Assembly: GCA_964473565.1 (NCBI GenBank)
Contig: CAYYPI010000001.1
Coordinates: forward strand, 57,854 to 121,853
DNA length: 64,000 bases
Reading direction: 5' to 3'
Source: an uncultured Gammaproteobacteria bacterium
GTDB taxonomy: Bacteria > Patescibacteriota > Patescibacteriia > Patescibacteriales > UBA12465
Part shown: piece by piece, positions 4,634 to 48,969 of the stretch
How positions within the stretch are numbered: the stretch's first letter is position 1
Layout: each line of letters begins with the position of its first letter
Notes under the pieces: generated by a model
Told to the model about the DNA's origin: nothing
Database searches by the model: none
What the model saw: the letters and a program-made list of their open reading frames with translations, nothing else
Program-made: the position numbers and the translations under genes

Positions 4634-5782
4634 CTATTTTAAAATATCTTGCAATCTTTTAAGGTTTTTATCTAAGTTTAAGCTATTTGTAATTAGATAA
4701 TGTGAGTTAGCACTCAAGTCTTTACGCTTTAAAGGATCTCTGTATAAGGAGATAATAGCAGATATTAAGTCATCTACCTCAGCTTTAGACTCTATAGAGC
4801 ACTTCTTCTCTTGAAGTAAATAAGAAAGGTTTTGTTCTTTTAAAGTAATAATAGGTAAGGACTTACTTAATGCTAAGAGCAAATAATGATACTTGCATAA
4901 AGATAATCTGTCATTACTTAAAATAAATAAATTGGCAGTATCTAGCCATTCATTAATATGGTCCTTTTCGTTTAAAAACCAAACATTTTTTTCTACACCC
5001 AGTTTATTTGCTAACCACTTGAGATTTTCATGGTTCTTGTTTAGTCCAATAATCAAAAGTTGAGCAGAGGGTATGGCTCTAAGTAAATCAGGTAGGGTTT
5101 TGATAATTACTTCAGTATAATTTTTATGCTTTAAATCAGCTAAAACTACTATACTAAAGTAGCGATGAAAGAAGTTTAAAGTTTTTGATTTGCTTAAATT
5201 ATCAAAAATGCTTTCTTGATGAGATTCTCTGTGAGAGTAGCTTAATAAGGGGAAGTGAAAAACTTTATTGCCATAGCTTTCTTCAGGAAAGATCTTCTCT
5301 AGCTCCTGTTTTTCTTTATTGTGAAAAGCAATAATTTTTATATTTTTGCCCCACTTCTTTAACAACTTCTTAGCTTTACTAACATATTTGTCACTCATTA
5401 TTTCGGCTTCAGGCAAGAACCACCATTGCACTTTCAAGCTATTATTATTTGAGTTTTCACTCTCTAAATCTTTCTTTGATTCTTTTTCTTTTCTTTTGTG
5501 TCCATATAATTTAAGTAGACAAGAAAAGATGATTCTCTCTGGCCAGCTAGCACAAATTATTGTTAAGGAATCTTTTTTTAGATGCTCACTTATCTCTTTC
5601 TTAGCTTTAAAAATTAAATATGGAAGCAATATAAAAAACAGATATTTATCAAAACCGTTATTTTTTTCATCATATAAACAAGGACCAGAAATAAAATGAA
5701 AGTTTTTATTTTTTAAATCATCAAATAATGAATTTAAATATTCATTGTCTAGACTTTTATGATTGGCAAGATAAAAAATCAT
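4634..5782 (-). CDS. hypothetical protein, possible glycosyltransferase (next to flippase)
   Basis: 382 aa ORF; no strong motif recognised; context with Wzx-like flippase. Confidence 0.3.
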   Translation of the reverse strand: MIFYLANHKSLDNEYLNSLFDDLKNKNFHFISGPCLYDEKNNGFDKYLFFILLPYLIFKAKKEISEHLKKDSLTIICASWPERIIFSCLLKLYGHKRKEKESKKDLESENSNNNSLKVQWWFLPEAEIMSDKYVSKAKKLLKKWGKNIKIIAFHNKEKQELEKIFPEESYGNKVFHFPLLSYSHRESHQESIFDNLSKSKTLNFFHRYFSIVVLADLKHKNYTEVIIKTLPDLLRAIPSAQLLIIGLNKNHENLKWLANKLGVEKNVWFLNEKDHINEWLDTANLFILSNDRLSLCKYHYLLLALSKSLPIITLKEQNLSYLLQEKKCSIESKAEVDDLISAIISLYRDPLKRKDLSANSHYLITNSLNLDKNLKRLQDILK

Positions 5783-5795
5783 GTTAATTATATTC

Positions 5796-7247
5796 TTAAT
5801 TTATTTCATTTAAAAACTCTACATCTTTTTTATCCCATCCTTTTAAGAGATAAAAGGTTAAGAAATATATACCTATGGCAATAAAAATAGTAGTCATTAG
5901 TCCGTACCAAGTATACTTAAAGGCACCGGGAATAATTAATATAGAAGCTAGCATCACTAGTGACGAGAGAAAGCTCTTGAAAAGCACCTTATGCTTAGGC
6001 AGGAAGCCGATAAACTTGTAGACATAGAATATAGCCATAATAGCGACCACAGCTTCACTATATACTGTCATCCAAGCTGCACCAATATATGAATATTTAG
6101 GAATAAAGAGAATGTAGCCAATTACTGAAGTAATACTGGTAAATATATAGATTGGTATTAACTTCTTTTGCTTATCAATTGCAATAATTGCATGTGAGAA
6201 CAAGGTGCCAATAAATATTAGAGCTCCTGCTAATATTAATATTTTTAGAACCTCAGCTGAGGCCTTAAATTCAGAGCCAGCAATTAAATGAATAATTTCT
6301 GTTGCTAAAAACTGCGTAGCAATTAAAACGGGTATAGCCAGTAGTATCATAAAGTCATAGCTCTTTTGAATTAACTTTTTAAACTGAAATACTTTTTTTA
6401 GCGCCCAGGTTCTAGTAAAAAAAGGTAGCATTAAACCTGCAAACATAAAAGGTACGGTCACTAAAACATCAATAACCTTATAGGCTGCGCCATAGATACC
6501 AACATCACTTTGTGGTTTTACCAGTGATAGTATTAAAGTGTCAGCTTTTAAATAAATTAAATTAAAAACAATAGTAAGTGCTAGGGGCCAAGACTTAATT
6601 GCTATTTCCTTCCAGATATTTAAGTCAAAACGCAAACTTATTCTTATAAACTTCCTAGAAAAAAGAAAGTGTAAAAGAAAATTAATTAGATTAGAAATAA
6701 CTGTACTCCATAATACACCATTTAAGCCCAGGTTATACCTTATTGCCAACCAAACTCCTAAAACTAAAAATAATCTCCCTCCTACCTCTGCGATAGCTGC
6801 CCTTTCCATTTTAAGCCTTTTCTGAAAAAGGCCAACTAATATTTGATTTAAAGCAATAAAAAGAAAAGAAAGAGATAATATAAGTACACCCATTTTAATA
6901 GTGTAGTCATAAGGAAAGAGCCAAATTAAAGCTGGACCTAAACTAAGAAAGATTATTGCTGAGACTAGTCTTAGTGCAAAAAGATTGTCTAATATTTTTT
7001 TCTCTGATACTCCAGGCAAGCTAATCATTTGCACCGTCACCAGCGTTAAACCTAAGTCAGCAATAATAGCAAAAATAGAGACAAACGTTATAATAGTAGT
7101 ATACTCACCAAAGCCATTAGCTCCTAGATAGCGAGTCATTAAGGCGGTGGCAATTAAAGCAATAGCAGTTGATATTATTTTGCTAAGTATTTGTATGCCT
7201 GTATTGTATGCTATCCTTTTTTGTAGTAGTGGAGCCTTAGTTGTCAT
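5796..7247 (-). CDS. polysaccharide biosynthesis flippase (Wzx/MOP superfamily)
   Basis: 483 aa, ~12-14 predicted TM helices, N-terminal pattern typical of oligosaccharide flippases. Confidence 0.6.
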   Translation of the reverse strand: MTTKAPLLQKRIAYNTGIQILSKIISTAIALIATALMTRYLGANGFGEYTTIITFVSIFAIIADLGLTLVTVQMISLPGVSEKKILDNLFALRLVSAIIFLSLGPALIWLFPYDYTIKMGVLILSLSFLFIALNQILVGLFQKRLKMERAAIAEVGGRLFLVLGVWLAIRYNLGLNGVLWSTVISNLINFLLHFLFSRKFIRISLRFDLNIWKEIAIKSWPLALTIVFNLIYLKADTLILSLVKPQSDVGIYGAAYKVIDVLVTVPFMFAGLMLPFFTRTWALKKVFQFKKLIQKSYDFMILLAIPVLIATQFLATEIIHLIAGSEFKASAEVLKILILAGALIFIGTLFSHAIIAIDKQKKLIPIYIFTSITSVIGYILFIPKYSYIGAAWMTVYSEAVVAIMAIFYVYKFIGFLPKHKVLFKSFLSSLVMLASILIIPGAFKYTWYGLMTTIFIAIGIYFLTFYLLKGWDKKDVEFLNEIN

Positions 7248-7355: not shown

Positions 7356-7796
7356 ATGAAAAATGCTAAGAAAAAACTTCTCTCCGCTATAATACTACTC
7401 ACATTTTTAGTTATTCCAAGTTTCTTAATGACTCAAACAAACGTTGTTTCAGCTAGCAGTCTTTGGGATGCTCAGGTTGGCATTGAAGATGTAGGACAAA
7501 AAGCTTATGGAGAAACAGACTCTCCCCAAGACATCAGAATCACTGTTATGAAGATAGTTAATGTGGTATTGCAGTTCTTAGCTGTGATCTTCTTGGTACT
7601 TATTATTATCTCTGGTTATCAATGGATGACTGCTGGAGGAAACGAAGAACAAATCAAGAAAGCCAAAAAGAACCTATCAAACGCTGTTATTGGTCTACTT
7701 ATCATATTAGCTTCATGGTCTATTTCTTACTTTATCCTTAGAAGAATGATAGCTGTTGTTACCAATGAAATGAATTATTTAGAACCTACTTTTTAA
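7356..7796 (+). CDS. small membrane protein, pilin-like (TrbC/VirB2-like topology)
   Basis: 146 aa; signal peptide plus two hydrophobic helices; located upstream of giant LamG surface protein. Confidence 0.35.
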   Translation: MKNAKKKLLSAIILLTFLVIPSFLMTQTNVVSASSLWDAQVGIEDVGQKAYGETDSPQDIRITVMKIVNVVLQFLAVIFLVLIIISGYQWMTAGGNEEQIKKAKKNLSNAVIGLLIILASWSISYFILRRMIAVVTNEMNYLEPTF

Positions 7797-7846
7797 GAAC
7801 AAATAATTACTTAACTTAATTGTCACATTTTAAATACTATATATAG

Positions 7847-10543
7847 ATGAAGAGCTTAAAACAATTGTTAAAGATATATACACAAACAAAAAGGTTTTTA
7901 CAGGTAAAAAAACCTAAGTTTTTTGGTACTAAAAATATTTTTAAACTCAAAGCATTTAAACACAGTATAATTAAAAAGAACAAAAAAGCAGCAATTCTAG
8001 TTGTAGCAATGCTAATTATTGCCAGCAGTTCTATTTTTGTTTTTGATGTATTTTCTCAGCAGTCAGGCTCTAGAGTTTTAGATATGAGCTTAAGTGCAGA
8101 AAACTACGATGCTGTCACTAACACTTTTTATGATAGGAGTGGTAATGATAATCACAGTGACTATATTAATAATGTAAATTTTGTTGATGGGCGTTATGGT
8201 AGTATAGATGGAGCTATGAGTTTTGATGAAAATGCTAATAGTGGAACAGGAGAATATGTCGAAGTTGGTAATATTGAAAATTTTAGTAATGAAGAAATAA
8301 CCTCCATGGCCTGGATAAAACCAAATGCTTCAAGTGATGCAAGAGCGCCTATTACTAGAATAGATAGATTCTATCTTCAGCATTATAGCAATGACAGATT
8401 GGCCACTTATTGGTACGGGTGGAATAAACCAGGTTATCACACTTCCAGTGTTGATTCAGTGCCAGTAGGTGTTTGGACTCATGTTGCTGTTACTTGGGAT
8501 CAAGCAAATGGTGTAACTTTTTATATTAATGGAGAAAAAGATAATCAGATTTCAAATAGTGGAACAGGAGACGACATAGGTTGGATAAAGATAGGACAGG
8601 AAAATTCTAGCAGAAGGTATGATGGTTTGATTGAGGATATAAAAGTATATAACAGGTCTTTGAGTCAGGAGGAAATCCAAAATATATACAATTCATCACA
8701 ACCCATGGTCAGTGGCTCTAATTTAAATAAAGGTTTGGTGGGACACTGGAGTATGGATGAGGATGATTTTATAGAGGGAACTGAAAACTTAGCTCCTTAT
8801 ACAGATTATTCAGACAGAAATTATAATGAAGTTTATAATGCAAGTTGTTGGGGTGGTGATGGTGCAACAATTGAATATTTTGATTCTGGCGGTTATAACG
8901 ATATGCCATATAAAAAATTAATTAAAACAGATGCTGGCACAGGGGGGTGTTATCATAATAATAGTCAGTATTTTGATATAGAAAACAACACAACTTATAT
9001 TATAAGTGCTTATATTAAAGCAAACAGAAATCAAAGTTTTAATGGACATGTATTGAATATTAATAGACCAAGCGACAATCGCTATAAAACATCAAGTGGT
9101 TTTGATGTTACAACAGAATGGCAAAGATATTATTGGGTATATAATTCTTCTTCTGATGATGCTGGGACTTATCAAGCTAAACATATTATTTATATAGATG
9201 ATAATTTACCACTTGAGGTATATTGGTCAGGATTTCAAATAGAAGAGAAATCTGATATAACTCCTTATGTTAATGGTACTAGGGTTGGCACATTAACAGA
9301 GAAAACACCATATTCAAATCATGGAGATACTGGCATTGAACAATCTTTTTCTTTTAATGAAGATAGGTTTGGGAAAGAAGGTGGTGCTATGAGTTTTAAT
9401 GGAATTGATAATGTTGCTACTGCTGGTAATATTATTGATAATAATTTTGATGCTTATACAGTTTCTTTATGGGCCAAGCCAAACAACATAAGAACATCTG
9501 AACATGATATGCTTATTTCAGATGTAGGAGGCCATTGGTGGTATGTTTCTATAAATGGAACAAAATGGTTTTATAGAAATGATGAGACTGGAGATATATG
9601 GTCAAATGATAACGTTCAAGAAAATGAATGGTATCATATTGTTATTAATAATGATGGTTATGATGCTACTATGTATATTAATGGAGAACAACAGGGGACT
9701 GTAGGAAATGGCAGTGGCTTTGAGGACAGCGTGTTTAGTTTAGAAATAGGAAAATATTCTGCTAGCTATCCTTTATGGGATGGCCTTATAGATGATGTAA
9801 AAATATATAATAGAATTTTAAGTGAAGCAGAAATACAATCTTTATATGATTCATATGAGCCTAAAATAAGCGCAGGTAGTTTAAATAAAGGTTTAATCTT
9901 AGATATGCCTTTAACCTTAAAATATACAAAAGACGAAACATCTGGCTCTGAAATAATGACAGATAAAACACCTTATTCTAATGATGGACAGAATTATGGG
10001 GCGACAATAAGTGAAGAAGGTGCTGATTTTGATGGTGTTGATGATTATTTAAAAATTTCACATGACGCAAGTTTAAATACCCAAGAAGAAATCACAATTT
10101 CATCTTGGTTTTTAACAAGAACTAATTCGTCAGGACATATGAACATTATTGGAAAAAAATATTCTACGGCATGGGAGCTTAATATAGTTAATAATGACTT
10201 GTATTTTAATGTAAATATTGGGGGTAATTTTTATTCATATTTTTTAAGAAAAGATGATATAGTTACAGAAAATACATGGAATCACGCCCTTTTTACATAT
10301 AACAGTAATGATGGGGTTGCTAAATTATATTTTAATAATGTTTTAGTTGATTCAAGAAATGTAGCTGGCTTAATTGGTGTTAACACTCATGAGGTAGAAA
10401 TAGGTCATAGAGAGTCCTCATTGCTATGGAATGGAAAAATAAGTAATGTCCGTATATATAACCGCGCCCTTTCAGAAACAGAAGTAAAAAGTTTATATGA
10501 CAAAGGCAGATCAAGTAGTGGCATGATTATGCATGAAGAGTAA
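7847..10543 (+). CDS. large secreted protein with three concanavalin-A-like lectin/glucanase (LamG) domains
   Basis: 898 aa; N-terminal TM; thrice-repeated module ending in I(E/D/S)D(I/V)K(V/I)YNR(S/I/A)LS..E(I/V)(Q/K)..Y. Confidence 0.6.
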   Translation: MKSLKQLLKIYTQTKRFLQVKKPKFFGTKNIFKLKAFKHSIIKKNKKAAILVVAMLIIASSSIFVFDVFSQQSGSRVLDMSLSAENYDAVTNTFYDRSGNDNHSDYINNVNFVDGRYGSIDGAMSFDENANSGTGEYVEVGNIENFSNEEITSMAWIKPNASSDARAPITRIDRFYLQHYSNDRLATYWYGWNKPGYHTSSVDSVPVGVWTHVAVTWDQANGVTFYINGEKDNQISNSGTGDDIGWIKIGQENSSRRYDGLIEDIKVYNRSLSQEEIQNIYNSSQPMVSGSNLNKGLVGHWSMDEDDFIEGTENLAPYTDYSDRNYNEVYNASCWGGDGATIEYFDSGGYNDMPYKKLIKTDAGTGGCYHNNSQYFDIENNTTYIISAYIKANRNQSFNGHVLNINRPSDNRYKTSSGFDVTTEWQRYYWVYNSSSDDAGTYQAKHIIYIDDNLPLEVYWSGFQIEEKSDITPYVNGTRVGTLTEKTPYSNHGDTGIEQSFSFNEDRFGKEGGAMSFNGIDNVATAGNIIDNNFDAYTVSLWAKPNNIRTSEHDMLISDVGGHWWYVSINGTKWFYRNDETGDIWSNDNVQENEWYHIVINNDGYDATMYINGEQQGTVGNGSGFEDSVFSLEIGKYSASYPLWDGLIDDVKIYNRILSEAEIQSLYDSYEPKISAGSLNKGLILDMPLTLKYTKDETSGSEIMTDKTPYSNDGQNYGATISEEGADFDGVDDYLKISHDASLNTQEEITISSWFLTRTNSSGHMNIIGKKYSTAWELNIVNNDLYFNVNIGGNFYSYFLRKDDIVTENTWNHALFTYNSNDGVAKLYFNNVLVDSRNVAGLIGVNTHEVEIGHRESSLLWNGKISNVRIYNRALSETEVKSLYDKGRSSSGMIMHEE

Positions 10544-15413: not shown

Positions 15414-15887
15414 ATGGGCACTTTGGCCTTTAATAGGCAAGCTAAAAGAGAGTATGAAATCTTAAAAACCTATGAAGCCGGGATGGTTTTAAAGGGTTAT
15501 GAGGTAAAGTCTGTTAAAAATGGCCAAATCAATTTAAAAGGTAGCTATATTGTTATTAAAAGAATAGAAGGTAAGAAAGATAAAGCTCTAGCTCCCTTTT
15601 TAGTTAAAGCTCACATACCTATATACAAGCCTGCCGGACAGAAAGATGAATATGACCCCTATAGAGATAGGCAATTACTATTAAATAGAGATGAAATTAA
15701 TCAGTTGATTGGTAAGTCGCAGGAGGCGGGCTTGACACTTATTCCCTTAAAAGTTTATACTAAGCATAACCTTTTAAAGTTAGAAATTGGCGTAGGTAGA
15801 GGAAAAAAGAAAGTAGATAAAAGGGAGGATATTAAAAAGAGAGATTTAGATAGAAGAATTAATGCTCTTAAAAAAAGAAGATTTTAA
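15414..15887 (+). CDS. smpB: SsrA-binding protein SmpB
   Basis: 157 aa; NRQAKREYEILKTYEAGMVLKGYEVKS N-terminal signature. Confidence 0.9.
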   Translation: MGTLAFNRQAKREYEILKTYEAGMVLKGYEVKSVKNGQINLKGSYIVIKRIEGKKDKALAPFLVKAHIPIYKPAGQKDEYDPYRDRQLLLNRDEINQLIGKSQEAGLTLIPLKVYTKHNLLKLEIGVGRGKKKVDKREDIKKRDLDRRINALKKRRF

Positions 15888-15893
15888 TATTTG

Positions 15894-16275
15894 GGGATGA
15901 CCGGCATCGATAGCAAGAGTCCCTTAAATATTCAGAGCGTGTCTGAGTGTACACGTAAATACCACTCAAAATTATAATTGCAAACAAACTTGCAAGCAAA
16001 GCTACTTTCGCATGGAAAGTTCCTAGCTTTGCACCTGTTGCTGCTTAAATAGCATGCAACCATCTGTCCAGCTAGCTCCGAGCTGGGTCACAGGTGTCAT
16101 CAGGAGCTCGACTTTAAGTTTTTGCTTTTAGGCTTAAGGTTTTAAACAAATAAAAGCTAGAAGTGCTTGGTTTCGTTTAGCTTAGACAAGTACTTTGAAA
16201 CCTTCAAGCTAAACTATCTCTGTAAAGTTATTTAAGAAGCCTTGTTAGACGCGGGTTCAATTCCCGCCATCTCCA
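15894..16275 (+). ncRNA. ssrA: tmRNA (SsrA)
   Basis: Starts GGGGATG, ends with tRNA-like T-arm GGTTCAATTCCCGCC and acceptor CATCTCCA pairing with 5' end; internal tag reading frame GCA AAC AAA ... GCT GCT TAA (…FAPVAA*); immediately downstream of smpB. Confidence 0.8.
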
Positions 16276-16342
16276 CATTTCTTAAAATCAAATTACTTAA
16301 AGTATTATATTATTTCCTTAAATAATATAATTTTTATATATA

Positions 16343-16426
16343 GCTGCGGTGGCGGAACTGGTAGACGCGTTGGACTTAAAATCCAATGGTAGCGATACCG
16401 TGGGAGTTCAAGTCTCCCCCGCAGCA
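16343..16426 (+). tRNA. tRNA-Leu (anticodon TAA), class II with long variable arm
   Basis: acceptor GCTGCGG/CCGCAGC, anticodon loop CTTAAAA, long variable arm, T-loop TTCAAGT. Confidence 0.8.
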
Positions 16427-16808
16427 CTAAAAAAACTGTGTTTGTCACAGTTTTTTTGTTTATACCCTTTACAAAACAAAAAAAATAAGCTAATATAATT
16501 TTAAGATCTTTAAACTATTACATAAAAAATATTATATACTTTTTAAAGTGATAATTACTAATTATATTTCATTTCTATTTATAGATCTGAAGCTAGTTTT
16601 TAAATTGAATTGTTAATTTGATTGATTGATTGTATTCGTTAAAAACTATCATTTGTTTTCATGGTTTACTAAATTGTGTTGTCTTTGTTCATTTACTTTT
16701 TAAAGTTGTATGGGGTTAGCTATTATAGTTAACCCCTTTTTTTCTTTTCTTGACTAAAGATTCCAGATTATATACAATATATTTGCTTTGAAAGAAGTTT
16801 TTTTATTT

Positions 16809-16880
16809 GCGGGTATCGTATAATGGCTATTACATTACCTTGCCAAGGTAGAGATACGGGTTCGATTCCCGTTACCCGCT
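16809..16880 (+). tRNA. tRNA-Gly (anticodon GCC), U73 discriminator
   Basis: acceptor GCGGGTA/TACCCGC, anticodon loop TTGCCAA, T-arm ACGGGTTCGATTCCCGT. Confidence 0.85.
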
Positions 16881-16900
16881 CACTGAATTATCGCAAGAAG

Positions 16901-16926
16901 CAGAGTTTAAAAGCTCTGTTTTTTTG
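16901..16926 (+). terminator. rho-independent terminator after tRNA-Gly
   Basis: cagagtttaaaagctctg hairpin followed by T7. Confidence 0.4.
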
Positions 16927-17127
16927 TTTTTTATGTTTATAACAAACTAAAATATTTTAATTAAAAGCAATAAATACAACCATAGTAAAAAAGAGGTTAT
17001 AAAAGTTAAAGCTAATATTTGAGGTTAACTCTATAATATAGCAATCTAAGAGAAAAAAATTTGTGAATTTGGATTTATTTTAAAGAAATTTTAAAGAAAA
17101 TTGTGTTAACTTATGTTAAAATTTGAA

Positions 17128-17156
17128 TTGACTCTAAGGCAGTAAAAGAGTAAAAT
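17128..17156 (+). promoter_or_regulatory. sigma70-like promoter of the R-M/AIPR operon
   Basis: TTGACT - 17 nt - TAAAAT, about 30 nt upstream of the methyltransferase ATG; a related sequence recurs upstream of the RhuM gene (22319-22362). Confidence 0.4.
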
Positions 17157-17187: not shown

Positions 17188-18006
17188 ATGAAACCATATT
17201 TTAAAGATAAAAACTTTTCATTATATTTAGCTGACTCAACTAAATTTTTAAATGAAAATATAAAAGAAAATTCAGTTGACATGATATTTGCTGATCCGCC
17301 ATACTTCTTGTCTAATGGCGGATTTTCTGTTCACGCTGGAAAAAGAGTAAGTGTAGATAAAGGACAGTGGGATATAAGCAATGGATTAAAAAAAGACTTT
17401 GAATTTCATATAGAATGGATTAAACAATGTCATAGAGTTTTAAAACCAGGAGGAACTATTTGGATTTCTGGAACATATCACTCTATTTATCAGTGTGGCT
17501 TTGCTTTACAGGTTAATAAGTTTCATATTTTAAACGATATTGCTTGGTTTAAGCCTAATGCTTCACCTAATTTAAGTTGTCGTTTTTTTACTGCTAGTCA
17601 TGAAACACTTATTTGGGCTAGAAAAGAATTAAGTCATCCTAAAACTGGAAAAGCAGTAAAACAAAAACATAAGTTTAATTACGATTTAATGAAAAACGGT
17701 CATTGGCCAGAAGATTTTATTAAAAAACCAGGACTACAAATGAGAAGTGTTTGGTCCATGGGAACACCTAAACCAATAGAGAAAAAGCATGGCAAACACC
17801 CCACTCAAAAACCAATTGATCTTTTGGTTAGAATAATTATGGCTAGCACTGACAAAGGTGATACTGTTTTAGATCCTTTTACAGGTTCTTCAACAACGGG
17901 ATTAGCTTCTTATTTGAATGGCAGAAAGTTTATTGGTGTTGATTTGGAAAAGAAATACTTGGATTTATCTGTTAAAAGATTAAAAGATATTAAAAACAGT
18001 AAATAA
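17188..18006 (+). CDS. beta-class N6-adenine DNA methyltransferase, DpnA (M2.DpnII)-like, probable GATC specificity
   Basis: motif IV DPPY (MIFADPPYFLSNGG) preceding motif I (LDPFTGSSTTG); extensive similarity by recall to S. pneumoniae DpnA (VSVDKGxWD, PNLSCRxFT, GKHPTQKP, RFIGID). Confidence 0.85.
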   Translation: MKPYFKDKNFSLYLADSTKFLNENIKENSVDMIFADPPYFLSNGGFSVHAGKRVSVDKGQWDISNGLKKDFEFHIEWIKQCHRVLKPGGTIWISGTYHSIYQCGFALQVNKFHILNDIAWFKPNASPNLSCRFFTASHETLIWARKELSHPKTGKAVKQKHKFNYDLMKNGHWPEDFIKKPGLQMRSVWSMGTPKPIEKKHGKHPTQKPIDLLVRIIMASTDKGDTVLDPFTGSSTTGLASYLNGRKFIGVDLEKKYLDLSVKRLKDIKNSK

Positions 18007-18007
18007 T

Positions 18008-18925
18008 ATGAAATTTTTAGATTTTTATAAAAACAAGTTAAATTGCAAAACAGAAGATGAGGTTTTTAATTATTTAATTTCAAATTTACAAACATCAATC
18101 TCAGATTGGAGTTTTTTTGTTGACTGGGAAAAAGTTAAAAATCATATTTCTAATATTGAGACAGAATTAAATATATTAAATTCAGTTTTAGGTAAAAGCG
18201 ATTTAGATAATAAGTTTATTCAGATTATAAAAGAATATCCAAAAACTAAAAAGGCTTTATTAATTTTAATTGCAGTTAGGCACGAAAAATTAAAAGAAAG
18301 ACCAATATTAAATTTTAACGATGGCTTGAATGTTGAAGTTAAAGATTATATTTTTGATATAAAAAAAGAATTAACTCCAAAAATACAAAAGGAGTTATTA
18401 AGATTTTTTCACGAGAGTGGATTAAAAAGGATTTTTTATGATAAAAATATTAAAAATTTAGTTGATTATTGTTTTGGAGTTGAAGTTGGTATGGATACTA
18501 ATGCTAGAAAAAATAGGGGTGGTCATAATATGGAAGACATAGTCGAAGACTTTATTAAGAATATTTGTAAGAAAAATAATTATAAATATTTGAAAGAAGC
18601 AACTTCTGAAAAAATTAAAAAGGAATGGGGTTATGATGTTCCAGTTGATAAATCATCTAGAAGATACGATTTTGTAGTAGATAACGGAAAAGAGTTGTTT
18701 ATATTTGAAACTAATTTTTATGGTGGTGGTGGCTCTAAACTCAAATCAACTGCTGGTGAATATAGAAATTTATTTGATGTTTTGAAAGGAAAATATAAAT
18801 TTATTTGGATAACTGACGGATTAGGCTGGAAAACGACTGCTAAGCCGTTAAGAGAGACTTTTAATCATAATGATTATTTGTTTAATTTATCTATGTTAGA
18901 AAATAATATTTTAAATTTTTTATAA
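18008..18925 (+). CDS. type II restriction endonuclease, DpnII/MboI family (GATC)
   Basis: 305 aa; motifs VDYxxGVEVGMDTNxRKNR, NFYGGGGSKLKSTAGEY, FIWITDGxGW, LRETF, LENNIL recalled from R.DpnII; 2-nt gap to methyltransferase. Confidence 0.7.
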   Translation: MKFLDFYKNKLNCKTEDEVFNYLISNLQTSISDWSFFVDWEKVKNHISNIETELNILNSVLGKSDLDNKFIQIIKEYPKTKKALLILIAVRHEKLKERPILNFNDGLNVEVKDYIFDIKKELTPKIQKELLRFFHESGLKRIFYDKNIKNLVDYCFGVEVGMDTNARKNRGGHNMEDIVEDFIKNICKKNNYKYLKEATSEKIKKEWGYDVPVDKSSRRYDFVVDNGKELFIFETNFYGGGGSKLKSTAGEYRNLFDVLKGKYKFIWITDGLGWKTTAKPLRETFNHNDYLFNLSMLENNILNFL

Positions 18926-18928
18926 ATT

Positions 18929-20647
18929 ATGACTAGAATAGATCAATCCTCTAATCAAGATTACCATTTAGTCAAAATTAAAACTCAAGAAACAGTAAAT
19001 AAGTTAGGGAGTGTTTATGGATTCTCCGAAAATTCTATTGGCTTTGAATTTTTAGTACTTTCAAAAATATTTAAAAGGCAAGAAGATGAAATTATAGAAG
19101 ATATTACAGATTCTGTTTTTTTGAATAAATTATATAATCAGGATAGTGGCCCAGATAGAGGCATAGACGCTTTAATAATTGATAATGAAAAAAATATAAT
19201 TCATTTATTTAATTTTAAGTATACAGAAATTATTTTTAATAGAGTAAAAGAAAAAAATTTTCCTGGAAATGAAGTAAATGAGATAACTGTTTTCTTGAAG
19301 AATTTATATGAGAAAGAAGAGTCTTCTTTTTCGGGCAACTCGGCTAATAATAGATTAGAAGAAAAAGTAAAAGAAATTTGGAAAAAGCAAGAGGAAGGGG
19401 TAATCTTTACAATTGAAATCCATTTTGTCGCCAATTTGTTTAAAGGGTTAGCCGACCAAGAAGAACAAAGGCTTGTTTCTGAATTAAAAAATTACAGAAG
19501 CGATGTTTCTTTTAATTATATTTTAACTAGAGATATTGTAGACATTTTAATTAGCAGATCAGAAAAAATAGATTGCAAATTTAAAGCATTATCAAAAAAT
19601 TTTTTTGATAAAACAGAAGGCGGTAATAGAGCTTTAATACTAGAAATGTCAGCTTTAGACTTATTAAAAATTACAACTAATAATTTAGGATTAAGAAATA
19701 AAATTGATTTTGAAGATGAAGAAATAACTAATTCAAGTATAGAGGAAAATATTTTTGGTGATAATGTTAGAGTGTATTTAAAACAAAGAACAAATATTAA
19801 CAGGAATATTAAAGAAACGGTTCTTAATGATGAAGAAAAACCAAATATATTTTTTTATAATAATGGCATTACTATAACCTGCGATCACATAAAATATCAA
19901 GGACAAAGAAATCAAACTATTACATTAGAAAACTTTCAAATTGTTAATGGCGGCCAAACAGTGCATGCTTTGAGAGCAGCTTTTGAAGAAAATAGTGATA
20001 ATTTTGAAGAAATAACAATTTTGTGTAAAATTTATGAAACAGATAATCCTAATTTTAAAAGTAAAATAGCAGAATATACTAATAGTCAAAACCCAGTAAA
20101 AGATCGTGATATAAGGTCAATAGATCTTGTGCAAATCAAATTAGAAGAAGAGTTTAGGGATCTGGGATATTTTTACGAAAGAAAAAAAAGTCAATACGAG
20201 AATGAGAATAGAGATAAAAAAATAGATTCAGAAAAATTAGGACAATCTCTTTTGGCGTTCAACATAGAAATGCCGGCAGAGGCAAAAGATAAAAAAAGAA
20301 TAATATTTAGTGACAAATATGACGAAATTTTTAACGATACTTTATTAGCAAAAGACGCTTTAATTGTATTTAATCTTTATAAAGAAATTGAAATAAAAAA
20401 AATAAAAAATAAAAAGGAAAAACCCTATTTAATGCATGCAACATATTATATTATGTTTTTTATTAAAAGATTATATCAAGCAAAAAAGAAAAAACCATCT
20501 AATTTAATTGATCTATATGATGAGGCTATAGAAAAAATTGAAATAATTATAAAAAAAGAAAAAGAAAGGCTGGGAGAGGATTATCTAGATGCTGTCTTGT
20601 TTAAATCAAATAGACCTAAAGATTATTTAACAGAATTAAGTATGTAA
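18929..20647 (+). CDS. AIPR-family abortive-infection protein (N-terminal PD-(D/E)xK-like region + AIPR C-terminal domain)
   Basis: 572 aa; conserved IVNGGQTVHAL and FFYNNGITITCD motifs reminiscent of AIPR (PF10592); 3-nt gap to the endonuclease gene. Confidence 0.55.
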   Translation: MTRIDQSSNQDYHLVKIKTQETVNKLGSVYGFSENSIGFEFLVLSKIFKRQEDEIIEDITDSVFLNKLYNQDSGPDRGIDALIIDNEKNIIHLFNFKYTEIIFNRVKEKNFPGNEVNEITVFLKNLYEKEESSFSGNSANNRLEEKVKEIWKKQEEGVIFTIEIHFVANLFKGLADQEEQRLVSELKNYRSDVSFNYILTRDIVDILISRSEKIDCKFKALSKNFFDKTEGGNRALILEMSALDLLKITTNNLGLRNKIDFEDEEITNSSIEENIFGDNVRVYLKQRTNINRNIKETVLNDEEKPNIFFYNNGITITCDHIKYQGQRNQTITLENFQIVNGGQTVHALRAAFEENSDNFEEITILCKIYETDNPNFKSKIAEYTNSQNPVKDRDIRSIDLVQIKLEEEFRDLGYFYERKKSQYENENRDKKIDSEKLGQSLLAFNIEMPAEAKDKKRIIFSDKYDEIFNDTLLAKDALIVFNLYKEIEIKKIKNKKEKPYLMHATYYIMFFIKRLYQAKKKKPSNLIDLYDEAIEKIEIIIKKEKERLGEDYLDAVLFKSNRPKDYLTELSM

Positions 20648-20825
20648 AATTAAACTTACCACCAACCACTGTATTGCCCCGCTAAAAGCGTTGACCATAT
20701 GTTGTCCAAATGGTGATAAAAGTAGATATATTGAGTAGTTTTAGATAACTAAGATTAAACAATAATTACCTAATAATAGACAATAATTTGCATATACGGT
20801 GTTATTGTCTTTTTTGTTTCTCCGT

Positions 20826-20847
20826 TTCGATTCCCGTTACCCGCTCA
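20826..20847 (+). repeat. 22-nt exact direct repeat of tRNA-Gly 3' end (att-like)
   Basis: ttcgattcccgttacccgctca identical to 16861-16882. Confidence 0.8.
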
Positions 20848-20857
20848 AAGATACAAA

Positions 20858-20884
20858 AACAACCTCGAGAAAGGTTGTTTTTGT
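20858..20884 (+). terminator. rho-independent terminator
   Basis: aacaacctcgagaaaggttgtt hairpin + T5. Confidence 0.45.
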
Positions 20885-21004
20885 TAGGTAAAGTTTGACT
20901 ATTATCTATTTAGGGATGAATTCAAAAAGTTAGTATATTTGTTTGACAAGATATATACTAAGTTATAAGATAGTATATATAATAAAAAAGATAACAACTA
21001 ACTT

Positions 21005-22135
21005 ATGAATATTGAAATTTGTAAAAAAATCAAACAACCTGAAGGTTTTGAGGCATCCGTGCCTAACGATTTTCCTGTCAAAGGCCTGTTTGACATTTCT
21101 CAAGAATTGATAAATAAAGCAGGAGAGGCGGAGAGGTTAGTAGGAAAACTGGATGGCATAACTCAAATATTGCCAGATGTTCAGTTTTTTTTGAAAATGT
21201 TTTCATTAAAAGACGCTACCTCTTCAGCTCAAATTGAAGGAACTCAGGCAACTATTGTAGATGCTGTTGAGATGGACGCTGGAATTGATGGAAAAGAAAG
21301 CGATGCGCAAGATATTATTTTCTACATCAAGGCTCTTGAATATGGTATTGAAAGAATAAAAGAGTTTCCTTTATCATTAAGATTTATACGTGAACTACAC
21401 TCTAAATTAATGAAAGGTGCTCGTTCAACTCATTTTTCTGATCCTGGAGAATTTCGTAATTCACAAAATTGGATAGGGGGAACATCTCCCGCGAACGCTG
21501 CTTTCGTTCCACCGCCTGTTCATGAAATGAAAAGAGCTCTAAATGATTTAGAAAAGTTTATGTATGATCAAAAGTCAACATTACCTATTATTCATATAGC
21601 ATTTTTGCATGCTCAATTTGAAACAATCCATCCGTTTCTAGATGGTAATGGACGAGCAGGCAGGCTGTTGATTACTTTAGCTTTGTATAAAATGAAATTA
21701 TTAGAGAACCCTGTACTGTTTTTGTCTTCTTATTTTAAGCAACATCAAAAAGTATACTATTCTAAACTCAACAACTATCATTCAGGTGAGGTGTTTGAAT
21801 GGTTAGAATTCTTTTTAGATGGGGTTATTGATACAGCAAATAAATCAATTTCTATAGCAAAAAAAATTAAAGATATTTATAAGAATGATATGTTAAAGAT
21901 ACAGGCTCTTGCAAAAAGAGAGTCTGAAAGTGGAGCTTTAGTTTTATCTAAATTATATGGTAATCCAATTATAACAACTAAAATTATAATGGACTGGACA
22001 GGGTTTACACGTTCAGGGGCTCAAAAAGTGATAAACAGATTTGTAAAAATTGGAATATTGGAAATACGTGACGAAGAAGGAACTTATGATAAAAAGTATT
22101 CTTATAAAAAATATTTAGAAGTCTTTATTAATTAA
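21005..22135 (+). CDS. Fic-family protein (AMPylase-type), class II with N-terminal inhibitory motif
   Basis: Fic motif HPFLDGNGRAGR; upstream SxxxEG inhibitory helix motif (TSSAQIEGTQ). Confidence 0.85.
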   Translation: MNIEICKKIKQPEGFEASVPNDFPVKGLFDISQELINKAGEAERLVGKLDGITQILPDVQFFLKMFSLKDATSSAQIEGTQATIVDAVEMDAGIDGKESDAQDIIFYIKALEYGIERIKEFPLSLRFIRELHSKLMKGARSTHFSDPGEFRNSQNWIGGTSPANAAFVPPPVHEMKRALNDLEKFMYDQKSTLPIIHIAFLHAQFETIHPFLDGNGRAGRLLITLALYKMKLLENPVLFLSSYFKQHQKVYYSKLNNYHSGEVFEWLEFFLDGVIDTANKSISIAKKIKDIYKNDMLKIQALAKRESESGALVLSKLYGNPIITTKIIMDWTGFTRSGAQKVINRFVKIGILEIRDEEGTYDKKYSYKKYLEVFIN

Positions 22136-22206
22136 AAGAATATTCTTAACCACTTTCAATAACTTAACCCTAAGACAGATTTGACTAAGTTCCAGTTTGG
22201 AGCTCA

Positions 22207-22256
22207 CTAAATTATTGAAATAGCAGAATTTAAAAGCTCTGTTTTTTTTGCTATTT
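22207..22256 (+). repeat. imperfect copy of the sequence flanking tRNA-Gly (att-like)
   Basis: gctcactaaattattgaaatagcagaatttaaaagctctgtttttttt vs 16874-16926 gctcactgaattatcgcaagaagcagagtttaaaagctctgttttttt. Confidence 0.6.
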
Positions 22257-22385
22257 TTTTAAAACATTACTAAATTAATCATTATAATTATTAATAAAAA
22301 ATTAAGTAAATATTTGTTAAAGTTAAATTAACTCTAATTAATCTAAAGAGTAAAATTAAAACATGAAAGAAAAGAAAATAAAAAA

Positions 22386-22853
22386 TTAGCAATTTATCAA
22401 GCAGAAAATGGTGCAACAATTGAACTTTCTGTTGATTATAAAAAGGATACTATTTGGGCAAGTATAAATGAAATTGCCCTTCTTTTTGAAATTAATAAAT
22501 CAAATGTTTCTAGACATGTGAAAAATATTTTTTCTGAAGAAGAGGTTGTAAAAGATGCAACTGTTGCAAAAAACGCAACAGTTCGAAGGAAAGAAGGAGG
22601 CAGAGAAGTAGAAAGACAAATAGATTGTTATAGTTTAGATATAATTATAGCTATAGGATATAGAGCTAGATCAACAAAAAGGGCTACAGAGTTTCGTAAG
22701 TGGGCAACTAAAATTTTAAAAGAGCATATTACTCAAGGCTATACCATTAATGAAAATATTTTAAAGAAAAAGCAAGATTTATATCTAAAAGCTTTGGAAG
22801 ATATAAAATTATTATCTAAAAATAATAAAAACCTAAAACAAGTGATGTTTTAG
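22386..22853 (+). CDS. RhuM-family (virulence/defense-island) protein; N-terminus lacks canonical start, possible frameshift
   Basis: ATVAKNATVRRKEGGREVERQIDCYSLDIIIAIGYRARSTKRATEFRKWATKILKEHITQGYTINE matches RhuM core; conserved N-terminal region (LAIYQAENGATIELSVDYKKDTIW…) is in frame upstream of the GTG used by the ORF track but the only ATG (22363) is in another frame across a poly-A run. Confidence 0.65.
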   Translation, partial: LAIYQAENGATIELSVDYKKDTIWASINEIALLFEINKSNVSRHVKNIFSEEEVVKDATVAKNATVRRKEGGREVERQIDCYSLDIIIAIGYRARSTKRATEFRKWATKILKEHITQGYTINENILKKKQDLYLKALEDIKLLSKNNKNLKQVMF

Positions 22854-23017: not shown

Positions 23018-23653
23018 ATGAATTTTGAAAAAAACTTTTTTGAGAATAATAAAAAAGAAAAAAATTTTGAGTTAAATTTTGAAGAAATGAATAATAAGGA
23101 AGTTCAGGATTCTTGCACTGCTATAGCCAATGAAATGCAAGGGTATTTGTCAATTCCTGCTAACATTAACTTTAAACCATCAAAAAATAGTGAAAACAAT
23201 GGATTTGCTTCGATATTACATAAAGAGTATAGAGATCCTGATTATCAGCATAATATTACTATAATTTACACTAATGAACATATAGAAGAAATACCATTTT
23301 ATTTAGCACATGAATTGGGACATTGTTTTGAAGAGCAAATTATTGATGTAGCCAAAAAAAATAAACTAGAGGTATACCCTAAAGAGTCACCCCTTTATGA
23401 TGAAATGGATTGGGAAGGGCCTTATGGTGATTTAATCGCTACTTACATTTTATCGCCTGAAAGTTTTAAAAAAAATGAAAATTTACCATATTTAGATAAT
23501 TGCAAAATAATTTTTAATGAGATCTTTGAAAACAAAGATTTTTCTGATTTAAGAACTCAAGTAGAAAAAAGTCAAAAAGAAAATAGCCAAGATTTTATTG
23601 GAGACAGAGTGTTTGATAAAATTAAAGAATATTTTGAAAAAAATAATAAATAA
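23018..23653 (+). CDS. hypothetical protein with HExxH zinc-peptidase motif (ImmA/IrrE-like?)
   Basis: 211 aa; AHELGHCFEE motif. Confidence 0.45.
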   Translation: MNFEKNFFENNKKEKNFELNFEEMNNKEVQDSCTAIANEMQGYLSIPANINFKPSKNSENNGFASILHKEYRDPDYQHNITIIYTNEHIEEIPFYLAHELGHCFEEQIIDVAKKNKLEVYPKESPLYDEMDWEGPYGDLIATYILSPESFKKNENLPYLDNCKIIFNEIFENKDFSDLRTQVEKSQKENSQDFIGDRVFDKIKEYFEKNNK

Positions 23654-45962: not shown

Positions 45963-46682
45963 GTTTCTTAAAATTTAAAGTTTAACTCCTGCCTCTCTTT
46001 TATAAAGATAGGTGGAATTTAAATTTTAAATGTACTTTGACATTTGAATAATAGAACCAATTAATTAAGTAAAAATAAAGTTTTTTCGTTCAAGATAAGA
46101 GCGTGGGAAAATCTCAACAAGAGTATACGGTGGATGCCTCGACATAAAAAGACGATGAAGGACGTAGCAGCCTGCGAAAAGCTTCGGTAAGGTGGCAAGC
46201 AACCTTTGACCCGAAGATTTCCGAATGGGGAAACCCGCCCTATTGAAGATAGGGCATGCCTTGAGTCAAATCAAGGCAGGAAGACCCGGTGAATTGAAAC
46301 ATCTTAGTAGCCGGAGGAAAAGAAAACAAACGTTTATTCCCTTAGTAGTGGCGAGCGAAAGGGGAAAAGCCTAAACTTTATAGACTGAGTTTAATGGATT
46401 TATCTACTTCGGTAGATAATGAAGTTAAACGGAAGGATTTGGGTCCACATGTTTATAGAGGGTTGTAAGAAAATTGTGTTTATCTCCCAAACAGATAAGG
46501 CAAAGTTACAAAAAACTATTTTTAACTAAATGAGCTGGAAAGCTCAGCCAGAGAAGGTGATAGCCCTGTAAGTGAAAAGAATAGTTTCTTTGCTGCAATT
46601 TTTCTTAAGTAGTGCGGAACACGTGAAATTCCGTATGAATCTGGGTCGACTATGATCCAAGGCTAAATACTTTTTATGATCA

Positions 46683-46717
<35 letters not shown>

Positions 46718-47895
46718 CATCCCGGTAAGGGAGGTGAAATAGTACCTGAAACCATATACTTACAAGGAGTCGGAGCCCATTTATGGGTGACGGCGTGCCT
46801 ATTGAAGAATGAGCCAACGAGTTTGTTCTATGTGGCTACATAAGTCCTAACAGGAAATATGTACAGTGAAAGCGAGGGTTAACTGCCCGTATATTTCACT
46901 TCCATTTAACGCCAATGTTAGTGTTAAGTGGAAGTGAAATCAGAGTCGCATGGACAAGACCCGAAGCCGGGTGATCTAGCCATGGCCAGGTTGAACTTTA
47001 GCGAAAGCTAAAGGGAGGACCGAACACACTAGTCGTGCAACACTAGGTGATGAGCTGTGGTTAGCGGTGAAATTCCAATCGAACTCGGCGATAGCTGGTT
47101 CTCCTCGAAATAGCTTTTGGGCTAGCCTCGGATGTTGACTACTGGAGGTAGAGCACTGAATGAGGGCGGGTCTTCGGATACCGTCTTTAACCAAACTCCG
47201 AATGCCAGTAGGTATAATCCGGGAGTTAGACTATGGGGGCTAAGCTCCATCAGTCGAAAGGGAAACAGCCCTAACCGCAATCTAAGGTCCCTAAATATAT
47301 GCTAAGTGTCAAAGGTGGTGTTGTGACTACGACAGTTAGGAGGTTGGCTTAGAAGCAGCCATCCTTTAAAGAAAGCGTAACAGCTCACTAACTAAGTTGT
47401 TTCGCGCCGAAAATTTATCGGGGCTAAAGCATATTACCGAAGCTGCGGATTCTAGAACTATGTTCTAGAGTGGTAGAGGAGCGTTCTGTTTAGCGTTGAA
47501 GTTGTGTCGTGAGGCACAGTGGAGCAGACAGAAGCGAGAATGTTGGCATGAGTAGCAAAAAGGCAGGTTAAAACCCTGCCCACCGAAAACCTAAGGTTTC
47601 CTGGGCAACGCAAATCGTCCCAGGGTTAGTCGGTCCTAAGGTCATGCCTGTGTAGTGCAGGCGCAGCCGATGGAAGAGCTGGTTAATATTCCAGCACTAC
47701 TGTTGTTTTCCGATGGGGGGACACGGTTTCAAAGTTCAAGCGCATTTAATGGTATGTGCGTTGCTTGCCTCAAGAAGCGATCTAGGCAAATCCGGATCAA
47801 TAGCTTTAAGAGGTCGGCAAGAGGTGAAGCCTTTGGTGGAACTGATTTGAGCATAGGAGCTGTCAAGAAAAACCTCTAGGGTTAATTCAACAGTA

Positions 47896-47927
<32 letters not shown>

Positions 47928-48189
47928 CGAGAAGCCTCAGGTGTACGAGAGAACCTTCGTTAAGGAACTCGGCAAAATAGCGGCCGTAATTTCGAGATAA
48001 GGCCTGCCCTGAGCAATCGGGGCCGCAGCTAAAGAGCTCGAGTGACTGTTTAGCAAAAACACAGCTCCCTGCTAACTCGAAAGAGGATGTATAGGGGGTG
48101 ACGCCTGGCCAGTGTCCGAACGTTAAGAGGAAGGGTTAGCTTTGGCAAAGCCCTGAATTCAAGCGCGGATGAACGCCGGCGATAACTAT

Positions 48190-48955
48190 GAAATGATTGT
48201 AGTTATAAAATTTGGCTATTTGCGGGAATATCCTGTTAAGTTAAGAGTACTAGTCTTTTAAAAGGCAGTAAAAATCTCTTAAATAACCCTAAGCAATTTA
48301 GGTACGGGACAATCCGCAGGAAAGACTCTAATAAAAAATTATATGACAGACAGTAAATGGCTTAAACAAGTAGATCCTGCTAAAGGTTATTACCTAGCTG
48401 GATTTGCTGACGGAGAAGGAAGCTTTAATGTCTCTTTAAGAAAGAGGGATGACCATACTATGGGTTGGCAAGTGGTACTTACATTTAATGTATCTCAAAG
48501 AGAGAGCCACATATTAGCCCAGTACAAAAGAATTTTAGGTTGTGGTCGCATACAAGAAAGATCAGATGGTCTTCACATGTATGTGGTTAGCAATCCTAAT
48601 GCGATTGTAGAAAAGGTCATACCTTTCTTTAAGCGCTTTAACTTCTTATCTCAAAGAAAAAAGCAAAATTTTTCTATCTTCTGCAAAATAACAGAATTAG
48701 TTTATTCTAAAGCTCATCTAAATAAAGATGGTTTAGAAGAAATTGTTAAATTGCGTGAAAAGTTAAATGAAGGAAAAGGTAGAAAAAGAAAATATAATCA
48801 AGAAGATGTTACTAAACATCTTAAAGAGAATCCTCAGAGACTACATGCCAAACAAAGACCTTTTCGTAATGAGAAGGCCTAGATGATATAGTCCGATCTC
48901 TATAGAGATATAGAGTGTTAATAAAGGTTGGCTTTATTAACTGTTAACATAAATG
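48190..48955 (+). mobile_element. group I intron 1 in 23S (after …AACTAT)
   Basis: exon sequence resumes at aatcgtcctaaggt; carries HEG ORF. Confidence 0.6.
48343..48882 (+). CDS. LAGLIDADG homing endonuclease (single-motif)
   Basis: LAGFADGEGSF motif; inside 23S intron. Confidence 0.8.
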   Translation: MTDSKWLKQVDPAKGYYLAGFADGEGSFNVSLRKRDDHTMGWQVVLTFNVSQRESHILAQYKRILGCGRIQERSDGLHMYVVSNPNAIVEKVIPFFKRFNFLSQRKKQNFSIFCKITELVYSKAHLNKDGLEEIVKLREKLNEGKGRKRKYNQEDVTKHLKENPQRLHAKQRPFRNEKA

Positions 48956-48969
48956 AATCGTCCTAAGGT

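Follow-up and report, generated by a model that had tools for sequence, protein, structure and literature searches.

An intact AIPR-family (AbiU-type) gene follows a DpnII-type restriction-modification pair on a small tRNA-Gly islet

A 64,000-nucleotide stretch of contig CAYYPI010000001.1 (the window) carries, at positions 18929 to 20647 of the plus strand, an open reading frame (ORF) of 572 amino acids that follows a DNA methyltransferase (MTase) gene and a restriction endonuclease (REase) gene. As judged from its sequence, this ORF is intact and belongs genuinely to a known family of phage-defence proteins, AIPR (AbiU-type). The explanation that we prefer, at a probability of about 0.62, is that it encodes a functional AIPR-family (AbiU-type) defence protein, expressed as the last gene of an MTase-DpnII REase-AIPR operon.

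Membership of the family was established using profile searches. The Pfam profile for AIPR (PF10592) matched residues 277 to 535 over profile positions 2 to 285 of 308, with 172.2 bits against a cut-off of 25 (E = 2.7e-50), a strongly positive outcome for the check that the first-pass annotation of this DNA had proposed. The AbiU profile of PADLOC (PDLC02357) aligned with residues 34 to 534 (E = 5.3e-49), and PHROG 1841, described as "Abi alpha-like abortive infection mechanism," spanned residues 10 to 561 (E = 2.5e-74). The first-pass annotation had also called the C-terminal motifs AIPR-like, and it was right to do so. The quoted motif FFYNNGITITCD is present in the translation at residues 307 to 318, QIVNGGQT occupies residues 337 to 344, and in the family alignments these motifs coincide with invariant columns. 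Across alignments of 46 homologues and of 16 more distant ones, the invariant motifs of the AIPR domain were ENVRVY, NNGIT..C, QIVNGGQT, TNSQ, RD, and ERKK.

The family is large. More than 1000 homologues were found among the candidates scored in a large protein database, and the top 120 are mostly full length and 40 to 91% identical, with sources that include Paceibacterota, Flavobacteriaceae, Sulfurimonas, Helicobacter, Bacillus cereus, and cyanobacteria. Many of them already bear the name "AIPR family protein" or "abortive phage infection protein," and annotated homologues are also carried by 154 plasmid records and 23 phage records. Full-length homologues, covering 98 to 100% of the query, also back the ATG start codon of the ORF, and no identical protein sequence was present in the contig index. 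Compared with a 91%-identical relative, the ratio of nonsynonymous to synonymous substitution rates (dN/dS) was 0.096 for the MTase, 0.069 for the REase, and 0.063 for the AIPR protein. Within the latter, it was 0.069 for the N-terminal domain (residues 1 to 215, 18929 to 19573) and 0.049 for the AIPR domain proper (residues 277 to 535, 19757 to 20533). These low ratios point to purifying selection on all three genes and on both domains of the AIPR protein, and they indicate that the AIPR gene is intact and kept by selection.

The two genes that precede the ORF on the same strand form a DpnII-type Type II restriction-modification (R-M) pair, in which a DpnII-family REase adjoins a DNA adenine methylase at a distance of 1 nt. 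The N6/N4 MTase (272 amino acids, 17188 to 18006), the modification subunit of the system, matched PF01555 (N6_N4_Mtase) with 188.7 bits and PADLOC MTase_II with 299 bits. The REase (305 amino acids, 18008 to 18925) matched PF04556 (DpnII) with 305 bits and PADLOC REase_II with 299 bits. Given the DpnII-family partner, the whole system, MTase included, would be specific for GATC. The observed/expected ratio of GATC is 0.84, in line with that of other 4-mer palindromes; there is no avoidance of this site, and the ratio gives no signal on R-M activity. As the first-pass annotation had stated, the AIPR ORF begins 3 nt past the endonuclease stop: the TAA at 18923 to 18925 is followed by ATT and then by the ATG at 18929.

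The expression signals point to a single transcript. The best sigma-70-like promoter candidate (TTGACT-17-TAAAAT, 17128 to 17156, plus strand) lies 31 nt 5' of the MTase start; it is a consensus match only, at 10 of 12 positions, and promoter-like sites overall occur at chance density in this AT-rich region. No terminator-like site was predicted between 17188 and 20647, and 3' of the AIPR stop an AT-rich hairpin (20778 to 20810) with a T-run (to 20819) is the likely operon terminator. Together with the tight gene junctions, these signals make it likely that the three genes are cotranscribed. Translational coupling of the AIPR gene to the R-M genes may also occur. Only 3 of the 35 long genes in the window are preceded by a Shine-Dalgarno-like motif, so that translation initiation here is largely independent of such motifs and their absence at the AIPR start is uninformative on coupling. 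Of the earlier proposal of one promoter and translational coupling, one good promoter-like site and the lack of an internal terminator thus speak in favor, and both parts stay inferences.

The N-terminal domain was explored using structure prediction and conservation. The AlphaFold2 model of the full-length protein has a mean predicted local distance difference test score (pLDDT) of 87, and residues 1 to 215 modelled alone reached a pLDDT of 92 and a predicted template modelling score of 0.89. The model of this domain is an alpha/beta fold with a four-stranded sheet, in which strands 81 to 85 and 90 to 97 form a beta-hairpin with D80 at its start and N95-x-K97 at its end. This hairpin lies within DRGIDALIIDNEKNIIHLFNFKY, the segment at residues 75 to 98 in which the first-pass annotation had seen a resemblance to PD-(D/E)xK nucleases and which is present in the translation as quoted. 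Among the 46 homologues, Q10, D11, D61, D76, D80, K97, E115, and N140 are invariant and E54 and N95 nearly so. Among the 16 distant homologues (28 to 44% identity), which include the proteins of Salmonella phage RE-2010 and of a Paracoccus plasmid, D76 and D80 are again invariant, K97 is near-invariant, and position 95 is Q or N. The acidic...(D/E/Q/N)xK signature on a beta-hairpin that marks the PD-(D/E)xK group is therefore found in this domain, and the conserved D...(Q/N)xK is suggestive of a PD-(D/E)xK-type active site, having the look expected of one.

Fold comparisons gave weak matches, none of them significant. The best Foldseek match of the N-terminal domain was CdiA-CT (4g6u, E = 0.036, TM-score 0.23), and several further weak matches were likewise PD-(D/E)xK enzymes, namely, the arenavirus L endonuclease (5mv0), Nt.BspD6I (5liq), BstEII (9ibq), and Avs4 (8dgf), with TM-scores of only 0.2 to 0.3. 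Subthreshold matches to Vsr, Mrr_cat_2, and GpA_nuclease were isolated and limited to single members of the family. A 2026 review describes a similarly tentative result for lactococcal AbiUi, whose AlphaFold2 model was superimposed on FokI over 146 of 568 residues (PMC13064643). A HEPN domain has been assigned to the AIPR N-terminus (PMC3506569); for the 572-amino-acid protein, this candidate was rejected given the alpha/beta fold and the lack of a conserved Rx4-6H motif. We therefore regard the PD-(D/E)xK assignment as suggestive only. The conserved D80...(N/Q)95-x-K97 and the confident alpha/beta model uphold the earlier nuclease claim in part; the significant fold or profile match that would complete it was not obtained.

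In the literature, the AIPR domain is described as ParB/DndB-like, with QIVNGGQT replacing DGQ(Q/H)R, and AbiU1, AIPR, and COG1479 have been put in the ParB superfamily (PMC3632139). The searches of PDB, Pfam, and NCBIfam gave no ParB-like, DGQHR, or DUF262 homology for the AIPR domain. In BFVD, the top match of the protein was a phage "AIPR protein" (E = 6e-13), followed at a distance by weak matches to DndB-like (E = 0.03) and ParB-like (E~0.9) models. QIVNGGQT, which we take to resemble the DGQQR/DGQHR motif, serves here as a lead and not as a test.

These likenesses, together with the candidate nuclease, would fit a modification- or nucleoside triphosphate-dependent DNA endonuclease akin to GmrSD/BrxU with its domains reversed. 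Such an enzyme would cut modified phage DNA that escapes DpnII-type restriction while the host is spared, and would complement a partner that cuts only unmethylated GATC. We nevertheless consider this Type IV-like explanation improbable, since no significant sequence or structural link to DUF262, GmrSD, or DndB emerged and the phenotype reported for AbiU is a delay of phage transcription, not degradation of DNA (PMC13064643).

Under the preferred reading of an AIPR-family defence protein within the R-M operon, the R-M pair would cut incoming unmethylated GATC DNA as a first layer of defence, and the AIPR protein would act as a second layer on phages that escape restriction. In this scheme, the N-terminal D...(Q/N)xK domain would act as effector, being a nuclease, and the C-terminal AIPR domain would serve as a nucleic-acid- or nucleotide-binding sensor and regulator. 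Phage gene expression would then be blocked or delayed, as reported for lactococcal AbiU.

Several results weigh against this reading. The AbiU profile scored 165.8 bits on the whole protein and 170.7 bits on the C-terminal part alone, and the N-terminal domain alone gave no PADLOC AbiU match, so that homology to lactococcal AbiU is demonstrated for the AIPR domain only. Foldseek searches of the PDB gave no match at E <= 0.001 with either the full model or the N-terminal domain, and phmmer and profile hmmsearch gave no PDB match other than a spurious one to caspase-3 (E = 0.04). Pfam, PADLOC, and NCBIfam at relaxed thresholds named no family for the N-terminal domain of the window protein, nor, in the case of Pfam and NCBIfam, for that of any of the 46 homologues. 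To our knowledge, mechanistic work has never demonstrated cell death as the "abortive infection" outcome, not even in the case of AbiU. A ParB/DndB-like character of the AIPR domain is weakly indicated, by the literature (PMC3632139) and by the BFVD match at E = 0.03. Finally, a strict linkage to DpnII among the closest relatives could mean that the AIPR protein is not independent of the R-M system.

This linkage was evident from the gene neighbourhoods of relatives. All 12 inspected members of the clade with an identity of at least about 47% sit in DpnII-type cassettes, which come in two gene orders. In order A, N6_N4 MTase-DpnII-AIPR, the window is joined by loci L001 to L004 (91% identity of the AIPR protein), L170 (65%), and L171 (60%); the MTase-REase-AIPR gaps are at most 8 nt in L001, L170, and L171. 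The earlier claim of an AIPR-family gene that forms a three-gene unit with a Type II R-M pair is thus confirmed, the same order recurring at 91%, 65%, and 60% identity. In order B, the AIPR gene lies between a D12 (DpnM-like) methylase and the DpnII REase with gaps of 2 to 8 nt, and an ORF of about 141 amino acids and an N6_N4 MTase follow. This order was found in L169 (77%), L005/L009 and L007 (70%), L172 (58%), and L010 to L012 (47 to 51%), the last from Sulfurimonas and Flavobacteriaceae. The junctions are at most 8 nt in every related cassette.

Two features of the order-B cassettes are recorded here in their own right. The ORF of about 141 to 145 amino acids between the DpnII REase and the N6_N4 MTase is conserved and without a Pfam match (10572 to 10997 in L007; 3576 to 4013 in L169), and the REase slot of L172 holds a 205-amino-acid protein, also without a Pfam match (7709 to 8326).

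The two orders interleave along the scale of AIPR identity, and the pairwise identity matrices of AIPR and DpnII proteins are only partly congruent (r = 0.63). Between the window and L169, for example, the AIPR proteins are 77% identical, the REases 47%, and the MTases 27%. These discordant values indicate that the pairing has been re-formed and not merely inherited, and by this comparison AIPR genes are re-paired with different DpnII-type cassettes. Moreover, MTases that are 64 to 70% identical to the window MTase are also found 5' of distant AIPR genes (30 to 35%), with another nuclease in between. These three-gene units lie at 4429 to 7566 in L058, 3752 to 6666 in L056, and 2200 to 5289 in L060. 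In L058, the middle position is taken by a MutH-family protein (PF02976, E = 7e-16), and in L056 and L060, it is taken by a 174-amino-acid small PD-ExK protein with PDE...IEVK. The exchange of nucleases beside like MTases suggests that the constant is GATC modification and not one REase fold.

Outside the clade, the linkage to DpnII vanishes (4 of 80 GTDB loci). R-M families are nevertheless enriched in these 80 loci, where they make up about 20% of the immediate neighbours (Types I, II, IIG, and III), including N6_Mtase (5), N6_N4 (5), D12 (4), ResIII (4), and Eco57I (3) proteins and Type I S and R subunits. Stand-alone AIPR genes are found in the P2-like Salmonella phage RE-2010, where the gene occupies the moron hotspot and is annotated "prevents superinfection," and on a Paracoccus plasmid. 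The presence of stand-alone homologues in the defence hotspots of phages and plasmids makes it probable that the AIPR protein can act alone.

The main alternative is a guard or fail-safe comparable to PrrC-EcoprrI, in which the AIPR protein would be a dependent module, tied functionally and perhaps physically to the GATC R-M enzymes. These enzymes would keep it latent until a phage inhibits restriction or methylation, or until the GATC methylation status changes. The clade-specific linkage, which persists through the shuffling of partners, favors this explanation, as do the close-set position of the AIPR gene between methylase and REase in order B and the pairing of window-type MTases with MutH-family or small PD-ExK nucleases and an AIPR gene. 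PrrC has been named by Makarova et al. as a precedent for cooperation between R-M and abortive infection (PMC3506569). The guard explanation is opposed by the stand-alone genes of phage and plasmid hotspots, by the more distant homologues, most of which (of 80) have no adjoining R-M gene and the rest of which have diverse R-M types, and by the observation that AbiUi alone confers resistance in Lactococcus (PMC13064643). We hold PrrC-like dependence to be unlikely on balance.

An extension of the same idea follows from the repeated rebuilding of the MTase-nuclease-AIPR (or MTase-AIPR-nuclease-MTase) architecture with the nonhomologous DpnII, MutH-like, and small PD-ExK nucleases, which suggests that the AIPR protein reads GATC methylation or guards the R-M enzymes. 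The clade may then be a dedicated partner of GATC-specific modification systems, not a generic stand-alone abortive-infection family, and would fire upon phage subversion of restriction or methylation. This is a tentative proposal that we would not favor at present.

The borders of the cassette suggest that it is mobile. The tRNA-Gly(GCC) gene (16809 to 16881, plus strand; ARAGORN and Rfam) stands at its 5' side, after smpB (15414 to 15887), the tmRNA (15893 to 16278), and tRNA-Leu (16343 to 16427). The last 22 nt of tRNA-Gly (left, attL-like copy at 16861 to 16882) are repeated exactly, on the same strand, in a right, attR-like copy at 20826 to 20847, 178 nt past the AIPR stop; none of 100 shuffles produced such a match by chance. 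The repeats delimit an islet of about 4 kb, which contains no ORFs other than those of the MTase, the REase, and the AIPR protein. Direct repeats of a tRNA 3' end that flank an insert are the mark of a tRNA-integrated island; no integrase is encoded between the 22-nt repeats. Compared with phage records, the islet DNA matched in the tRNA-Gly gene only. The same layout is present in L001, with three 22-nt copies (5768 to 5789, 5952 to 5973, and 9899 to 9920), the repeats flank the insert throughout L001 to L004, and the relative's islet has tRNA-plus-flank copies on both sides. No flanking tRNA genes or long direct repeats were found around the other cassettes of the clade, so that targeting of tRNA-Gly is specific to the lineage of the window and L001.

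The ends of the islet carry further signals, all on the plus strand. A terminator-like hairpin with a T-run is predicted from the sequence directly after tRNA-Gly, inside the left edge (16895 to 16924), and a second hairpin with a T-run after the right repeat (20855 to 20887; sequence reading and minimum free energy fold) is presumably the displaced native tRNA-Gly terminator. The noncoding tail that leads from the AIPR stop to the right repeat (20648 to 20825) is 92% identical between the window and the relative, well above the synonymous sites (proportion of synonymous differences, pS, 0.45) and the upstream noncoding region (64%), and similarity stops right after the repeat. It folds better than shuffled sequences (z = -3.2), has no Rfam family, and holds only unconvincing small ORFs. 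The tail may contain the arms of a recombination site or a regulatory RNA.

Elsewhere in the clade, DpnII-AIPR cassettes lie beside large serine recombinases in L171 (5131 to 8124), which also has a Rep-like gene, and in L007 (3935 to 5434). Judging by such neighbours, plasmid-like or integrative elements evidently carry the module as well.

A discrete islet between tRNA-Gly repeats, serine recombinases and a Rep gene beside relatives, and frequent homologues on plasmids and in prophages could be taken to mean that the AIPR protein mainly maintains a mobile R-M islet by postsegregational killing or exclusion of competitors, phage defence being secondary. This selfish role is very improbable in our view: addiction is already conferred by R-M pairs on their own, nothing resembling an antitoxin accompanies the AIPR gene, and an anti-phage phenotype has been measured in the family (PMC13064643).

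The cassette lies in a small defence island that continues beyond the right repeat. Directly after the repeat, an intact Fic/DOC gene (21005 to 22135) matches PADLOC SoFic almost end to end with 342 bits and has its own promoter-like site (20943 to 20971). It is followed at about 22185 to 22277 by a degenerate third tRNA-Gly 3' end with a terminator (hairpin copy at about 22222), which is 75% identical over 56 nt to 16899 to 16954. A RhuM-like gene (22364 to 22853; PADLOC PDC-S05/S23) encodes about 163 amino acids, which is short for the family. Its reading frame, open from about 22365, does not match that of the ATG at 22364, so that a frameshift in an A-run close to the start is implied; the gene is probably in decay, unless the A-run was missequenced. 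At the distal end of the island, a 211-amino-acid ORF (23018 to 23653) has a HELGH (HExxH-type) motif and no Pfam, PADLOC, or NCBIfam match. Where the window has SoFic-type Fic and RhuM-like genes 3' of the islet, L001 has a YafQ-like toxin pair. This arrangement suggests that small defence cassettes have accumulated stepwise, or in tandem, at a tRNA/tmRNA hotspot.

The host signals are consistent with an origin in the candidate phyla radiation (CPR; Patescibacteria). The H+-pyrophosphatase has its best match, at 76%, in metagenome-assembled genomes (MAGs) of Patescibacteria, and the closest AIPR protein in GTDB belongs to a Paceibacterota MAG. The 23S rRNA gene (46111 to 50222) measures 4.1 kb against a model of 2.9 kb and contains two LAGLIDADG ORFs (48343 to 48882 and 49209 to 49676; PF00961, E = 2e-18 and 9e-25), which points to two intron insertions. 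Such insertions are typical of CPR rRNA genes. The first-pass annotation had asked what a host-dependent CPR bacterium would defend against; this is not a paradox, as reliance on R-M systems is documented for CPR genomes (PMC12455944), and one CPR bacterium is known to be bound, and to a small degree infected, by a phage (PMC13578794).

The association of AIPR with R-M genes has been published by Iyer in 2008 and by Makarova in 2012 and 2013 (PMC2292703, PMC3506569, PMC3632139). The locus is thus a correctly recognised and well-documented instance of a pairing described since 2008, and not a discovery, and it leaves current understanding unchanged. What is new here is the DpnII linkage of all inspected members down to about 47% identity, in two orders and with shuffled partners; the occurrence of window-like methylases with MutH-like or small PD-ExK nucleases and distant AIPR proteins; and the exact 22-nt tRNA-Gly bounds of an islet that lacks an integrase and is part of a small defence island with SoFic and RhuM-like genes.

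AIPR is a large and widely annotated defence family that is essentially without mechanistic characterisation, and sequence, profile, and Foldseek searches of the PDB returned no solved structure related to the AIPR protein. To this family, the locus adds a clean and compact example under purifying selection and two leads, the D...(Q/N)xK signature in a confident N-terminal model and a clade whose linkage to GATC R-M withstands shuffling. These leads make mutagenesis and experiments on R-M dependence easy to design. For CPR biology, it represents another streamlined genome in which defence genes arrive at a tmRNA/tRNA hotspot by way of small mobile islets.

Compared with known systems, the protein has an AIPR domain in common with MzaE of the MZA system. 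Similarity to MzaE was partial (NCBIfam NF041935, E = 2e-12, 46 bits against a cut-off of 1050; PADLOC MzaE, E = 1.7e-10), with neither an equivalog-level score nor adjoining Mza genes, and membership was rejected. With GmrSD/BrxU, it shares a two-domain logic, here of a candidate nuclease and a domain described as ParB-like, and the literature groups AbiU1/AIPR in the same ParB-superfamily assemblage as these DUF262/DGQHR proteins and DndB (PMC3632139). It differs from them in its reversed domain order, in its nuclease type, and in the absence of a significant sequence or fold match.

PrrC-EcoprrI resembles the cassette in that the gene of a second-line effector is embedded in or appended to an R-M operon with conserved linkage. 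PrrC itself, an ABC-ATPase with an anticodon nuclease in a Type Ic R-M locus, is an unrelated protein beside another type of R-M system. The classical GATC-specific DpnII cassette (dpnM/dpnA/dpnB type) provides the DpnII-family REase and the N6_N4 (DpnA-like) methylase that are also present in the window. The D12 (DpnM-like) methylase occurs in the cassettes of relatives, whereas the window cassette has one methylase only. We know of no AIPR gene in the classical cassette; here it is appended (order A) or lies between methylase and REase (order B).

The closest counterpart is AbiU1/AbiUi of Lactococcus lactis, the founding member of AIPR. The ORF differs in that no AbiU2-like HEPN partner gene accompanies it and in that its host is a CPR bacterium. 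AbiUi alone lowers the efficiency of plaquing 10- to 100-fold and delays phage transcription (PMC13064643). The two proteins share the PF10592 and PADLOC AbiU matches over the AIPR domain, the NNGIT and QIVNGGQT motifs, and a similar length (572 amino acids for the ORF, 568 for AbiUi according to the review, and 537 positions in the PADLOC AbiU profile), and the association with R-M operons that has been reported for the AIPR family holds for this ORF as well (PMC2292703, PMC3506569).

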